Source of the DNA: an uncultured Bacilli bacterium
GTDB taxonomy: Bacteria > Bacillota_I > Bacilli_A > RF39 > UBA660
DNA: 60,216 nt
Assembly (NCBI GenBank): GCA_947624705.1
Contig: CANQLL010000001.1
Span: forward strand, 1 to 60,216
Direction of reading: 5' to 3'
Position numbers and translations under genes: made by a program. The notes below the pieces were generated by a model. It saw nothing but the letters and a program-made list of their open reading frames with translations, made no database searches and was not told where the DNA came from. Below, one piece after another: positions 9,750 to 51,597 of the stretch (position 1 is the first letter of the stretch; the number at the start of each line of letters is the position of its first letter).

Positions 9750-9778
9750 TTGCTATTCATTTTTAAATATGGTAATTT
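9750..9778 (+). promoter_or_regulatory. Extended -10 promoter of small-peptide module 1
   Basis: TTGCTA (9750-9755), 17-nt spacer ending in TG-n, TAATTT (9773-9778). The inferred start is at GGATGCA (9786). Confidence 0.45.
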
Positions 9779-9844
9779 TTGAGACGGATGCATTGAAGCA
9801 CCCGGACTAGTGTTTTCCTTAATTTTTAAGGAGGGCTGATAATT

Positions 9845-9916
9845 ATGCGAGAAAAATTTTTTTATCAAGTAATTATTGTGCTACTTTTGCTAGCACTAAT
9901 ACTACTTACTATTTAG
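9845..9916 (+). CDS. 23-aa hydrophobic peptide MREKFFYQVIIVLLLLALILLTI (candidate type I toxin)
   Basis: ATG 9845 to TAG 9914-9916, with AAGGAGG at 9828-9834. The SD lies inside a perfect 7-bp hairpin, TCCTTAA (9816-9822) with TTAAGGA (9826-9832). Below the ORF-track size cut-off, and paralogous to the peptide at 19978..20055. Confidence 0.5.
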   Translation: MREKFFYQVIIVLLLLALILLTI

Positions 9917-9991
9917 TAGAAGCTAGACATCTTAGATTTTTCAACTAAACAACTTAGATTTAACATAATATTGGTTTGGTTGATACATTTT

Positions 9992-10083
9992 AAAATAAAT
10001 TAAAAGAGCACCGAATGCCACAGGGGGTCATACGGTGCTTTCCCAAGAAGGAAAGCACTAGGCCTTAAAGGCTTTGTGTATCC
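9992..10083 (-). ncRNA. Candidate antisense sRNA of module 1 (about 90 nt)
   Basis: TTGACT (10119-10114), 18-nt spacer, TAAAAT (10095-10090). The start is near GGATACA (10083). Two hairpins compete for AGCAC: 10035-10043/10050-10058 and 10006-10012/10033-10039. The distal one is followed by CTTTTAATTTATTTT on the minus strand. Confidence 0.4.
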
Positions 10084-10191
10084 ATTTCCATTTTAATATA
10101 TATTTTTATTTAAAGTCAATAAAAATAATACTCAAAAATTTTTTATTTGGAAATATAGACTAAAAACATAATCATTATAATTTTAAATATT

Positions 10192-19165: not shown

Positions 19166-19798
19166 ATGTTAAATGATAATAATCGTCAAGAATTAATTGC
19201 TAAAATAGAAAAATATCGAGAAGCGGGTTATGATCAAAGTAAATTATTAGAAATTGAAAAAGAAATTATTTGGTTTGAAAATCCCGAATTATCTTTATAT
19301 TTTGCGAAAAATATTAAAGATAGTGATATAGCAGTTCATAAAAGTATTGTTTGCCAAAGTAAAAATGCCAATTTGATGTGGGAATTCATGCAAAAAGTCT
19401 GCTTATGTGGTGAGTATCGAAATGAGTTAGCCGCTCATATAATTGATACTAATGATGAACATTTTATTGCTTTATTATGTGAAGATGATCAAATAAGTTC
19501 TATAATAAGAGAAAATGCTATAAAATGGTTGCTTAATAATGGTCATAAATTTCACATTTATGATTATCTAATAGGAAATGGTGAGTACATTAATAGTAAT
19601 GGCGATTATATTGATAATGATAGAATTTGTACTAAAATGATTAAAAAAATTTATCAAGATTTAACTGATGCTGAAAAAGAACATTTACGTTATTTATATC
19701 CTCTTACTATGCAAGCAATTGAAAAAACGATAGAAGAAAATGAAGCATTTAATGATATACAAAAATTGGTTAAAGCGATAAAACCAATAGAAAGCTAG
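19166..19798 (+). CDS. Hypothetical protein
   Basis: 210-aa ORF with an AGGA SD. No motif recognised. Confidence 0.45.
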   Translation: MLNDNNRQELIAKIEKYREAGYDQSKLLEIEKEIIWFENPELSLYFAKNIKDSDIAVHKSIVCQSKNANLMWEFMQKVCLCGEYRNELAAHIIDTNDEHFIALLCEDDQISSIIRENAIKWLLNNGHKFHIYDYLIGNGEYINSNGDYIDNDRICTKMIKKIYQDLTDAEKEHLRYLYPLTMQAIEKTIEENEAFNDIQKLVKAIKPIES

Positions 19799-19892
19799 TT
19801 TTAAAATGGCTGTTCGAAACAAAAAACAGCTTGTAAAACAATTATTTTTATGATACTATGAATATGTCAAGGAAACTTGCATAAAATAAAAA

Positions 19893-19984
19893 GGATACAT
19901 TTGATTGGGTGAATCAGATGTTATCCCTTAATTGGGTTTCATCTGAAATCAACGGTTGTTGAAATCAGATGTTTTTGCTATTTT
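19893..19984 (+). ncRNA. Candidate antisense sRNA of module 2 (about 90 nt)
   Basis: -10-like TAAAAT (19882-19887), start near GGATACA (19893). TCAGATG (19914-19920), CATCTGA (19940-19946) and TCAGATG (19965-19971) can form alternative pairings. The terminator hairpin 19940-19953/19958-19971 plus T-tract overlaps the stop codon of the peptide ORF on the other strand. Confidence 0.45.
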
Positions 19985-20055
19985 AGAAGTAAAATAATTA
20001 CTACTAAGAATAGGAGTAATATTATAATAAATTGAGAAAATTCTCTCTTTGTCAT
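19978..20055 (-). CDS. 25-aa hydrophobic peptide MTKREFSQFIIILLLFLVVIILLLK (candidate type I toxin)
   Basis: Internal ATG at 20055 of the 73-aa track ORF, preceded by AAGGTGGTGG (20070-20061). An ungapped alignment to the 9845..9916 peptide gives identities at M1, F6, Q8, I10, I11 and L13-15. Confidence 0.5.
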   Translation of the reverse strand: MTKREFSQFIIILLLFLVVIILLLK

Positions 20056-20131
20056 AAATACCACCACCTTTCTCTTATCGTTTGATAATTGAAAGGGAAA
20101 GCATCTGATAAATTCAAATGTATCCACAAGC

Positions 20132-20160
20132 ATTATATCAAACAAATGTTTTAAAAACAA
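20132..20160 (-). promoter_or_regulatory. Extended -10 promoter of small-peptide module 2
   Basis: Minus strand TTGTTT (20160-20155), 17-nt spacer, TGATATAAT (20140-20132). Inferred start at GGATACA (20125). Confidence 0.5.
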
Positions 20161-20360
20161 TATTTTTTCTAAATTTTTTGTTGCGTTTTTATTTAACATT
20201 TAATTATCAAATTAACTTTTAAAAATAATCATTTATAATAAAATGTAACAAAAAGAAGGAGAAAAAATATCTAACATTATTCTTACTTATCAATTAAAAA
20301 CAAAACAAGCTTAAATACTAGTTAAAACTAGTATTTTTTGTTATAATCTTTAAGAAGGAT

Positions 20361-33060: not shown

Positions 33061-34443
33061 ATGGATGTTAAAGAGATAATTAAGATTTGTGAAGGAAAAT
33101 TATTGGGTGGAAATGAAAATGTTTTTTGTCAAACATTTACAAAAGATACTAGAGAGTTAAAAGAAAAAGATACTTATATTGGGATTAAAGGTTTAAATTT
33201 TGATGGTAATTCTTTTTATGAAGAAGCTTTTAATAAAGGAGCAAATTGTGTTATCCTAGAGCAAGAATATGTTAAAAATCATAACATTAAAATAAGTGAT
33301 AAACCTATTATCGTGGTCGAAAATGCTTTATTAGCTTTAAAAAAAATGGCAGAGTATAAACGAAATAATTCTTCAGCTAAATTTGTCGGAATTACTGGTA
33401 GTGTTGGAAAAACCTCTACTAAAGATATGATTTATAGTGTTTTAAAAGAAGAATTTAAAGCTTTAAAAACGGAAGGTAATTTAAATAATAATATTGGTTT
33501 ACCTCTAACTTTATTAAGATTAACAGATGAACAAGCCGCCGTTATTGAAATGGGAATGAACCATTTAGGTGAAATTGATTATTTAACGAAAATAGCTCGT
33601 CCTAATATTAGTGTTATTACTAATATTGGGACGGCTCATATTGGCGAAGTTGGTTCTAGAGAAAATATTTTAAAAGCTAAATTAGAAATTTTAAACGGCA
33701 TGGATCAAGAGGGTATTTTAGTTATAAATAATGATAATGATTTATTACATCAATACTATGAAAATAGTGATAAAGCTAAAATAGTAACTATTGGTATTGA
33801 CCAAAAAAGTGATTTTATGGCTACGGATTTAAACTTAGAAAAAGAATATTCTACTTTTAAAATTAATTATCAAAATGAAAGTTATGATGTTTATTGTCCG
33901 ACACCCGGTCGAGTTTTTGTCTATAATAGTTTAATTGCATTTGCTGTTGGAAGTTTATTAAACATTCCTAAAACTAAAATAATAGCGGGGATTAAAAATT
34001 TTGAATTAACGAAAAATCGCTTAGATTATTTAAAAATAGATGATAATATAACATTAATAAATGATGCTTATAATGCCTCAGTTGATTCCATGAAATCTTC
34101 TTTAGAAGTTTTAAGTAAGTATCCAAATCGCAAAATTGCGGTCTTGGGAGATATGTTAGAATTAGGAAATTATACCCAAAAGTTACATGAAGAAGTAGGG
34201 AAATATGTTGTTTCTAATCAGATAGATATCTTAATAACTGTGGGTAAAAATGCCGAGTATATTGCCAAGAAAGCTACTCATTTAGGGATGCCTCAAGAAA
34301 AAATTTATTCTTGCTTGACAAATGAAGAAGCTACTTCTAAAATAAAAGAAATTTTAAAAGCAAATGATGTTGTTTTATTTAAAGCTTCTAATGGAATGAA
34401 ATTAAATGAAATTATTAAAAATTTAACCAAAAGTATTGAATAG
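33061..34443 (+). CDS. murF: UDP-N-acetylmuramoyl-tripeptide--D-alanyl-D-alanine ligase
   Basis: Mur ligase P-loop GITGSVGKTSTK, the NNNIGLPLTLL block and DAYNAS in the C-domain. Confidence 0.93.
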   Translation: MDVKEIIKICEGKLLGGNENVFCQTFTKDTRELKEKDTYIGIKGLNFDGNSFYEEAFNKGANCVILEQEYVKNHNIKISDKPIIVVENALLALKKMAEYKRNNSSAKFVGITGSVGKTSTKDMIYSVLKEEFKALKTEGNLNNNIGLPLTLLRLTDEQAAVIEMGMNHLGEIDYLTKIARPNISVITNIGTAHIGEVGSRENILKAKLEILNGMDQEGILVINNDNDLLHQYYENSDKAKIVTIGIDQKSDFMATDLNLEKEYSTFKINYQNESYDVYCPTPGRVFVYNSLIAFAVGSLLNIPKTKIIAGIKNFELTKNRLDYLKIDDNITLINDAYNASVDSMKSSLEVLSKYPNRKIAVLGDMLELGNYTQKLHEEVGKYVVSNQIDILITVGKNAEYIAKKATHLGMPQEKIYSCLTNEEATSKIKEILKANDVVLFKASNGMKLNEIIKNLTKSIE

Positions 34444-34482
34444 AGAACAAATGTATGCTAAGATTGTTTTAAAGGTGATTAG

Positions 34483-51013: not shown

Positions 51014-51252
51014 AAATATTCCTCATTTCTTGAGGAATATTCTAACACAAATTTAAAATTATTAATAGAAAAAATTGTTTCTTGGCTATGTATCTAAAAA
51101 CTATCTAAATCTTGAAGTGAAATTGATAATATGAGTCATGCTTAATTTTTAAGGATAATATTTATGTAAATTTATTTGTTTTTCGTCAAGCATTGCTCTC
51201 TAAAAGATTTGTAAAAAATATTTTAAAATTATTAAAAATTTTTATAAAATCA

Positions 51253-51281
51253 TTGTATAAAGAACAAATGTTTGACATAAT
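51253..51281 (+). promoter_or_regulatory. Extended -10 promoter of small-peptide module 3
   Basis: TTGTAT (51253-51258), 17-nt spacer, TGACATAAT (51273-51281). Inferred start at GGAATGCC (51289). Confidence 0.45.
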
Positions 51282-51342
51282 TGTTTTAGGAATGCCTAGT
51301 TAGTCTGGGTACTATTCTCCTTTTCTTTTTAAAGTGGAAGTT

Positions 51343-51441
51343 ATGAAAAAAACAGAGAAATATCTTTGTACTATCATAATACTCCTTAATCTTAATATTG
51401 TGATTTTAATCTTACTTATAAAAATAGTACCAACTGGATAG
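51343..51441 (+). CDS. 32-aa hydrophobic peptide MKKTEKYLCTIIILLNLNIVILILLIKIVPTG (candidate type I toxin)
   Basis: ATG 51343 to TAG 51439-51441, with a weak GGAAG SD. Charged N-terminus followed by a single TM-like stretch. Same module architecture as the loci at 9.8 and 20.0 kb. Confidence 0.4.
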   Translation: MKKTEKYLCTIIILLNLNIVILILLIKIVPTG

Positions 51442-51497
51442 GTCGGTACTAATCTAAGATTTGGAATAGTACCTAACTCAGCAAAATTAGGTATTCC
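51418..51497 (-). ncRNA. Candidate antisense sRNA of module 3 (about 80 nt)
   Basis: Minus-strand TAAAAT (51509-51504), start near GGAATACC (51497). Hairpin 51470-51476/51487-51493, then hairpin 51426-51431/51445-51450 followed by ATTTTTAT on the minus strand. It overlaps the peptide stop codon. The promoter block is 30/32 identical to that of the module 2 sRNA. Confidence 0.45.
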
Positions 51498-51541
51498 TTT
51501 TTTATTTTATGCAAATTTCTTTGACATATTAATCATAACAT

Positions 51542-51597
51542 AAAGACGACTTTTTTGACAAGTCGTCTTTTGCTATACTCGAAAGTTCGAGTTTTTA
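51542..51597. terminator. Two hairpins between module 3 and tRNA-Arg
   Basis: AAAGACGACT (51542-51551) pairs with AGTCGTCTTT (51561-51570). ACTCGAA (51577-51583) pairs with TTCGAGT (51586-51592), followed by TTTTT on the plus strand. Confidence 0.5.

Follow-up and report, generated by a model that had tools for sequence, protein, structure and literature searches.

A near-invariant 32-nt block as the probable control region of antitoxin RNA genes in a multicopy type I toxin-antitoxin-like family of gut Bacilli

Introduction

Why would 32 nucleotides of apparently non-coding DNA stay almost identical at two loci 31 kb apart while the genes beside them diverge? The question is raised by a stretch of 60,216 nt (the window) from an uncultured Bacilli bacterium (GTDB lineage Bacteria; Bacillota_I; Bacilli_A; RF39; UBA660; GenBank assembly GCA_947624705.1, contig CANQLL010000001.1, positions 1 to 60,216), in which an initial annotation had noticed the block in front of the antisense RNAs of two small-peptide loci, modules 2 and 3, and had taken it for their shared promoter. 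The best explanation, which we regard as probable, is that the block forms the 5' control and leader region of an antitoxin RNA gene with tandem promoters, in a multicopy and undescribed type I toxin-antitoxin-like family. Its near-invariance is probably due to overlapping signals that share the same 32 bases.

Distribution of the block and its association with peptide genes

The block of module 2, AATATGTCAAGGAAACTTGCATAAAATAAAAA (19861-19892, plus strand), is followed by GGATACA, and that of module 3, AATATGTCAAAGAAATTTGCATAAAATAAAAA (51499-51530, minus strand), by AGGAATACC. As the initial annotation had it, 30 of the 32 positions are equal at exactly these coordinates. The degenerate pattern given there matched the window twice, precisely at the two blocks, and had no match in 100 dinucleotide shuffles. 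Compared segment by segment, modules 2 and 3 are 94% identical within the block, and 51-70% identical in the upstream promoter, second hairpin, terminator, toxin open reading frame (ORF) and toxin 5' untranslated region (UTR), where shuffled controls reach 54-65%, in agreement with the claim of divergent RNA bodies and peptides. Module 1 (9750-10119) lacks the block.

The two copies in the window are real, but the block is not restricted to them, as a genome-wide pattern search returned 17 copies with the same flanks in the draft genome (1.28 Mb in 89 contigs, 26% GC, assembly 88% complete). Thirteen of the 17 face a short hydrophobic ORF on the opposite strand, 150-250 nt away, and four are orphan or decayed. 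Among relatives, the 16-mer TTGCATAAAATAWWAA is present in 23 of 61 genomes, 22 of which belong to the window's own family; the remaining match stands alone, outside the family and with no module around it. With the reversed pattern as a control there were three matches, each in another family. At least 118 stretches were found in species-representative genomes, nearly all of them in metagenome-assembled genomes (MAGs) named uncultured Bacilli, Tenericutes or Mollicutes, from the gut of rabbit, mouse, human, chicken (Candidatus Ventrenecus) and goat. With the TAAAAT hexamer left free, the block core is present in 122 of the 401 genomes of the family, spread over 87 of its 214 genera. By sequence matching, a single family of gut Bacilli with small, low-GC genomes thus carries hundreds of copies of the block, in at least 87 genera.

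The association of the block with peptide genes is strong and strand-specific. Among the 214 copies from this genome and its relatives that had enough flank for the ORF test, 141 (about 66%) face a hydrophobic, Ile/Leu-rich ORF of 22-37 amino acids preceded by a Shine-Dalgarno (SD) sequence, compared with 7 of 214 on the same strand and 11 of 400 random windows (about 3%). These counts support the earlier proposal that the block belongs to a duplicated functional unit at small-peptide loci. About five peptide subfamilies can be told apart, each keeping its sequence across genomes and genera: MTKREFSQFIIILLLFLVVIILLLK, MRKSEKYLCTIIILLIIVILIILIKIVPTV, MKTKTFIIKVLKLIAIILFLLIIMIVVIKK, MNKKDFLILSLVILIFLL... 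and MKKKDLLISFLILIIILLIVSLMILSIKK.

Copy numbers are lower bounds, as many copies lie within 150 nt of contig ends, because assemblers break at any repeat of 60-90 nt; examples in this genome are C49:144, C50:128, C8:521 and C32:14412 (149 nt from the end). Over about 85 nt, from the promoter through the second hairpin, the copies on C32 and C49 are identical; beyond it they diverge completely, which could reflect recombination or an assembly chimera. One relative carries five head-to-tail modules in 1.7 kb with a spacing of 350-520 nt (L154, G095:C11:5800-8600), in which at least three different types of second hairpin and toxin stand behind identical blocks. Complete modules also occur in MAG records labelled Muribaculaceae, Clostridium sp., Clostridia and Roseburia (L035, L041, L043, L073, L076), on contigs of 24-36% GC that are likely misbinned or mislabelled gut Bacilli. 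A single Bacteroidota match to the block was judged to be chance.

Predicted promoter elements within and upstream of the block

The hexamer TAAAAT within the block (19882-19887, plus strand, in module 2; 51509-51504, minus strand, in module 3) varies in the way of a promoter element. A first collection, made by the upstream part of the block only, gave about 46 family members, of which 31 carry the exact 12-mer TTGCATAAAATA, with TTGAAT, TATAAT and TACAAT among the variants. In the hexamer-free search of the 401 family genomes, the 149 family matches listed (our own count) comprise about 121 with TAAAAT, 15 with TACAAT, 7 with TATAAT, 1 with TAGAAT and 5 others (TAAACT, TAAATT, TATATT, TAAAAC and a 1-nt deletion). 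The change is confined to position 3 in 23 of the 28 variant family copies, where all four bases are seen, across at least 10 genera, and positions 1, 2 and 4 are unchanged in every listed family variant. This TAnAAT pattern is the signature expected of a sigma-70-type -10 hexamer, here the predicted -10 of a promoter termed P2. Copies with TAAACT, TAAATT or TAGAAT have an intact toxin gene opposite, and two copies in which T6 is lost or the hexamer is shifted by an indel have none. A GG lies 6-8 nt downstream of the hexamer, at the start of the second hairpin, and is the predicted start in module 2 (19893/19894). In module 3 a promoter scan gives TTAATA-17-TAAAAT for P2, scoring 9/12.

A second and better promoter match, P1, lies upstream of the block, 28 nt before TAAAAT. 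In a logo of 150 distinct copies, aligned and anchored on the 12-mer, its consensus is TTGnnA (conservation 0.94/0.90/0.86/-/-/0.88), a variable spacer of 17 nt, and TATGnTATnAT (0.90/0.87/0.98/0.92/-/0.99/0.97/0.83/-/0.88/0.95). Sigma-A promoters have a TTGACA-like -35 and a TATAAT-like -10 element 16-18 nt apart, and in Firmicutes often a TRTG motif at -16. P1 is therefore a predicted near-consensus Firmicute sigma-A promoter with the TRTG '-16' motif. It is kept in all 140 scorable toxin-bearing copies, and where P1 is damaged, in a few copies of the family, no toxin ORF was detected, in small numbers and by a crude test. P1 of module 2 (19831-19859, plus strand) consists of the -35 TTGTAA (19831-19836), a 17-nt spacer and the extended -10 TGaTACTAT (19851-19859), and scores 8/12, below the scan threshold; that of module 3 (51532-51567, minus strand) has the -35 TTGTCA at 51561-51556 and the extended -10 TGtTATGAT at 51540-51532, and is returned by the scan as TTGTCA-18-TATGAT with TG present, scoring 10/12. 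The predicted P1 start falls inside the block, at about 19864-19866 in module 2 and 51525-51527 in module 3. The earlier reading of the block as a promoter is thus supported in part, in that TAAAAT evolves like a -10 element, but not as it was stated, since the block is not simply the promoter: P1 is predicted upstream of it, and most of the block would be transcribed.

At many loci the P1 -35 lies in the loop of a hairpin followed by a T-run, for example ACGACTT-GTAAAA-AAGTCGT-TTTTT (L013, L018, L021, L177, L196), and in module 3 as GACGACTT-GTCAAAA-AAGTCGTC (51567-51545, minus strand). The stems vary from copy to copy (CGTACTT/AAGTACG, GCGCACTT/AAGTGCGC). This structure looks like a bidirectional terminator that would insulate each module, and it often stands directly after a tRNA gene.

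Other promoter assignments were rejected. TTGCAT as a -35 has no conserved -10 at 16-18 nt downstream across the family, although at L022, an unrelated locus, it does act as a -35, and a sigma-H type promoter (AGGAWWT, then GAAT) has unsuitable spacing by inspection. A minus-strand match, TTGACA-18-AATAAT (19870-19841, 11/12), uses the complement of TGTCAA in the block, but its -10 is not conserved elsewhere, and the match is probably fortuitous. A minus-strand ORF across the block, MQVSLTYS, has no SD and a frame that is not conserved.

The block as a predicted RNA leader

RNA starting at the predicted P1 start would read AUG(U)CAAG-GAAA-CUUGCAU followed by unpaired AAAAUAAAAA, so that the long antisense RNA would begin with a hairpin, HP1 (19864-19882, plus strand, in module 2; 51527-51509, minus strand, in module 3). 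Its loop is GAAA in 173 of about 206 copies, and its closing pair is G-C in 168, A-T in 24, G-T in 11 and A-C in 3, the excess of G-T over A-C favouring RNA of the plus strand over RNA of the complementary strand. Two versions of the 5' arm (AATATGT; TATTTGT/TATTTAG) pair with one and the same 3' arm in different registers, and 85.9% of the cells are paired, compared with at most 53% in slid controls. From these folds and pairing counts HP1 is likely a real hairpin.

As a whole, the predicted antisense RNA folds into three hairpins and an unpaired linker, with z-scores of -3.95 in module 2 and -5.25 in module 3. The second hairpin, HP2, of module 2 (GGAUACAUUUGAUU...AAUCAGAUGUUAUCC, 19893-19926, plus strand) has its complement in the hairpin at the 3' end of the toxin mRNA, and is followed by a predicted intrinsic terminator (19940-19976, plus strand; stem 19940-19971, then UUUUU). 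The module 3 antisense RNA body (51418-51497, minus strand) has HP2 at 51497-51463, the terminator stem at 51451-51425 and a U-tract at 51424-51418. In silico, the antisense gene, with P1, P2 and terminator, lies wholly inside the toxin transcription unit of the opposite strand. Rfam searches of the whole window at the gathering score returned only a T-box and tRNA, and a scan of 19780-20180 at E<=10 gave noise only.

Taken together, these elements suggest that P1 would start transcription at about the fourth to sixth base of the block, the first two thirds of which would become RNA, namely a GAAA-capped 5' hairpin and an unpaired A-rich linker. TAAAAT would be the -10 of P2, with transcription starting at the GG right after the block, at the base of HP2. 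From the two predicted start sites we infer two antitoxin RNAs, a long one of about 115 nt and a short one of about 85 nt, ending at a common terminator.

Several points weigh against this reading. Because the copies share descent and the repeat breaks MAG assemblies, the counts are not independent events, and the natural experiments on P1 and P2 rest on few copies (about 8 and about 6) and on decayed loci. No good -35 accompanies P2 (the candidates TTAATA, or aTGAat at a distance of 17-18 nt, are weak), and the TG is displaced by one base from where an extended -10 would have it. The hexamer would also come under the same -10-like constraint if it paused P1 complexes in a sigma-dependent manner. 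In HP1, compensatory change affects one of eight pairs only (GC in 49, AU in 11 and GU in 6 of 70 distinct sequences), half of the lower stem depends on the register, and a DNA palindrome would yield similar pairing counts.

The first alternative, to which we give a modest chance, is that the block is purely a promoter, in which P2 alone drives the antisense RNA from GG, the upstream bases serve as its spacer and -35 and perhaps as an activator or repressor site, and P1 is unused or otherwise used. The TAnAAT pattern and the position of the GG at the base of HP2 fit this as well, and the toxin mRNA starts in the same way, with GGAUACA/GGAAUA at an equal distance from its own -10. The copy at C30:5343 is also relevant, where homology sets in only at CTTGCATAAAAT, with P1 and the 5' arm of the hairpin replaced by unrelated sequence, so that only the part from CTTGCAT is kept; the toxin ORF there has, however, lost its stop codon and is six residues longer, and the copy may be decayed. 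P1, moreover, is a far better match than P2, which lacks a -35, and across genera its consensus positions are conserved while its spacer varies. A GAAA tetraloop, exchange between G-C and A-U at the closing pair and alternative pairing registers would all be unexpected in a promoter spacer.

Conversely, P1 might act alone, with TAAAAT as a -10-like element in the initially transcribed region (a pause site or RNA motif) and the block as the leader of a single RNA of about 115 nt. The consensus and conservation of P1, the hairpin right at the predicted 5' end and the constraint that a pause element shares with a -10 agree with this reading, which we consider rather unlikely. The hexamer would lie at about +17 to +22 of the P1 transcript, beyond classic sigma-dependent pause elements such as those of lambda PR' and lacUV5, which are nearer to the start. 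The conserved A-run, the GG at the right distance and a hairpin that begins exactly at this GG also fit a start site.

A DNA operator is less probable still, and would be surprising. The imperfect palindrome (ATG-CAAG GAAA CTTG-CAT) would in that case bind a factor common to all antitoxin genes, consistent with the perfect 8+5+8 inverted repeat of the copies on contigs C3 and C5 (TATGCAAA-GGAAA-TTTGCATA) and with the bases between the two -10 boxes, which are more conserved than the hairpin alone requires. Most copies, however, have a one-base bulge in one arm, and the two left arms pair in different registers, features that fit RNA better and that a dimeric DNA binder tolerates poorly; the 11 G-T intermediates against 3 A-C point the same way. 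No candidate regulator is linked to the modules, and the one recognisable operator in them, a LexA box, belongs to the toxin promoter. As shared binders, CsrA (through GGA in the loop) and Hfq (through the A-rich linker) were rejected, since neither gene was found in the 88%-complete assembly.

A reading of the block as one end of a dispersed repeat or of a mobile element unrelated to the peptides (an insertion sequence end, or a REP or MITE element), or as a chance AT-rich similarity, agrees with its copy number, tandem arrays and frequent position at contig ends and near tRNA genes, but is largely refuted and hardly credible given the absence of matches in shuffles, the 66% versus 3% association with convergent peptide ORFs, the lack of an inverted block copy at the toxin-promoter end of the module, which also rejects it as a terminal inverted repeat, and the lack of any transposase, phage or plasmid match, including in phage and plasmid collections searched in distant mode with the whole module.

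A probable regulator site on the toxin promoters

The initial annotation had allowed for a shared regulator site in the block. Nothing in the block matches a known operator, and no LexA box lies inside it; two small RNA bodies (C30, C54) match GAAC-N4-GTTY in a chance-like manner. A LexA-type box was found on the toxin promoter instead, where GAAC-N4-GTTT overlaps the extended -10 (e.g. AAGAACAAATGTTTGATATAAT). The box is exact in 33 of 141 toxin promoters and present with at most one mismatch in 58 of 141, compared with 0.25% and 4% of control windows, and the same box stands twice upstream of the lexA gene of this genome and once directly upstream of a Y-family polymerase gene. Given this enrichment and the boxes upstream of lexA, the common regulator of the modules is probably LexA, acting on the toxin side, and by analogy with tisB and dinQ of Escherichia coli the toxins may be SOS-inducible.

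In module 3 the box is exact (GAACAAATGTTT, 51262-51273, plus strand) and overlaps the extended -10 TGaCATAAT (to 51281) of the toxin promoter (51262-51289, plus strand), whose predicted start is GGAAUGCC at 51289. Module 2 has a degenerate LexA-like box with one mismatch (AAACATTTGTTT, 20151-20140, minus strand). On contigs of the genome the box is seen at C43:6243, C70:1771, C50:409 and C68:1341; LexA itself is encoded on C43, and the box of the C68 toxin promoter is intact. Within the window, a 63-nt stretch between two ordinary genes (34409-34471, plus strand) is 79% identical to the toxin promoter region of module 3 (51226-51288) and includes AGAACAAATGTAT; it may be another LexA-box promoter or the relic of a module.

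Toxin-like genes and their mRNAs

The toxin-like ORF of module 2 (19978-20055, minus strand) encodes the 25-residue peptide MTKREFSQFIIILLLFLVVIILLLK behind the SD GGTGGTG, and its subfamily recurs in other genomes. Its predicted promoter (20125-20160, minus strand) has TTGTTT-17-TGATATAAT at 20160-20132 and a start, GGAUACA, at 20125, giving a predicted mRNA of 242 nt that ends at about 19884. This mRNA has a minimum free energy of -77.8 kcal/mol (z-score -10), and in the predicted fold the 12 nt at its 5' end pair with the 12 nt that precede the tail, forming a 5'-3' fold-back, while the SD GAGAAAGG is paired with CCUUUC. The 3' tail, UUUUUAUUU, whose last 9 nt are unpaired U/A in the fold, is the complement of the A-run in the block, so that the A-run (19883-19892) would also serve, read on the minus strand as UUUUUAUUUU after the terminal hairpin, as the terminator U-tract of the toxin mRNA; the corresponding A-run of module 3 is at 51503-51498. 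The first 12 nt of the antisense HP2 are identical to the 5' end of the toxin mRNA (GGAUACAUUUGA), and the antitoxin would thus compete with the toxin's own 5' end for the 3' partner.

The A-run of the block would in this way act on the opposite strand as the U-tract of the convergent toxin mRNA terminator, and the 3' end of the tightly folded toxin mRNA would have its full complement in the antitoxin RNA. We infer, by analogy with bsrG/SR4 and txpA/RatA, a toxic membrane peptide of 22-37 amino acids that is neutralised at the RNA level, through a duplex over the 3' end of the toxin mRNA and subsequent cleavage by RNase III, which the genome encodes.

The toxin-like ORF of module 3 (51343-51441, plus strand; 32 amino acids, MKKTEKYLCTIIILLNLNIVILILLIKIVPTG) differs from its close paralogue on contig C68. 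The region 51320-51345 is without the 8-nt SD GGAGGTGA carried by the C68 copy, and the peptide has a two-residue insertion that places Asn in the hydrophobic core (LLNLNIV vs LLIIV). Because the SD is missing and the insertion contains Asn, this toxin is probably disarmed, with its antisense RNA gene intact. Pfam and NCBIfam searches with seven of the peptides gave noise only and no significant match.

Relation to known type I systems

In silico, the modules have what type I systems generally have: a hydrophobic ORF with promoter and SD (in module 2), an antisense gene with promoter and terminator, and a folded toxin mRNA. Known type I models (Rfam antitoxins; Pfam and NCBIfam models of Fst, TxpA/BsrG, SprA1, Ldr, Ibs and others) gave no match to the window, to the module 2 region or to the seven peptides searched. 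The modules represent a new family of a well-known kind of system, with the block as an unusually compact conserved control region, and not a new mechanism.

The closest layout is that of bsrG/SR4 in Bacillus subtilis (the BsrE-G-H group, with txpA/RatA, bsrE/SR5 and yonT/SR6), where a small hydrophobic peptide is likewise encoded opposite a convergent antisense RNA, the two transcripts overlap at the 3' end of the toxin mRNA, and this mRNA sequesters its SD, as is predicted here. To our knowledge, 17 copies in a small genome of 1.28 Mb far exceed the number seen in this group. The two also differ in that no sequence or model similarity was detected in Rfam, Pfam or NCBIfam, in that the antitoxin 5' region here is one near-invariant cassette common to at least five diverged toxin subfamilies, and in that the whole short isoform is predicted to lie inside the toxin 3' UTR. 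In bsrG/SR4, duplex formation is followed by RNase III-dependent decay of the toxin mRNA, and the SD is sequestered (PMC3834814); overlap on the 3' side is the Gram-positive layout in T1TAdb (PMC8594479).

The par system (Fst, RNA I/RNA II) of Enterococcus faecalis plasmid pAD1 is similarly a convergent pair from a Gram-positive host that overlaps near the terminator and has multicopy relatives on chromosomes, but the two RNAs interact there through direct repeats that lie at their 5' ends and outside the overlap, and the peptides here are without any match to the Fst family. The predicted fold-back of the toxin mRNA (12 terminal base pairs, z = -10) resembles that of hok/sok of plasmid R1 and aapA1/IsoA1 of Helicobacter pylori, where it is the 5' region that the antisense RNA targets and 3' trimming is required for activation; in the present modules the antisense RNA would cover the 3' partner of the fold-back, with a 5' end that mimics that of the toxin mRNA.

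Tandem antitoxin promoters have a counterpart in tisB/IstR of E. coli, which reportedly, in work by Vogel and colleagues in 2004, has two antitoxin RNAs made from tandem promoters with a shared 3' end and a LexA-controlled toxin promoter. The predicted P1/P2 pair and the LexA-type box over the toxin -10 are comparable with IstR-1/IstR-2 and tisB. IstR, however, is divergently encoded and pairs with the 5' UTR rather than the 3' end, the longer E. coli RNA is LexA-controlled together with the toxin, and the organisms are unrelated, without homology between the systems.

Implications

A further proposal, speculative and in our view unlikely, is that the block serves as a universal antitoxin platform, in which the unpaired A-rich linker AUAAAAUAAAAA of the long isoform is held open beside the GAAA-capped hairpin as a common toehold on the U-tail that ends every toxin mRNA of the family, within an SOS-triggered and cross-buffered network. 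If this were true, any antitoxin could first contact any paralogous toxin mRNA, with the variable HP2 giving specificity, and, together with the LexA boxes, the 10-20 modules of a 1-Mb genome would form one membrane-toxin network instead of independent addiction cassettes.

The probable assignment of the block to antitoxin RNA genes shows how densely signals may be packed in tiny AT-rich genomes, with two predicted promoters, an RNA hairpin and a convergent terminator within about 60 bp; because such signals overlap, a seemingly non-coding stretch can stay near-invariant across genera beside diverging genes. In practice, the repeat breaks MAG assemblies and flags peptide genes that gene callers miss. 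The LexA boxes of the toxin promoters suggest an SOS-inducible set of membrane toxins in a Gram-positive lineage. Almost no RNA biology is known for this group of gut Bacilli, formerly binned as Tenericutes or Mollicutes, and the block provides a signature of 16-25 nt with which hundreds of unannotated toxin/antisense-RNA modules can be found in its uncultured members.

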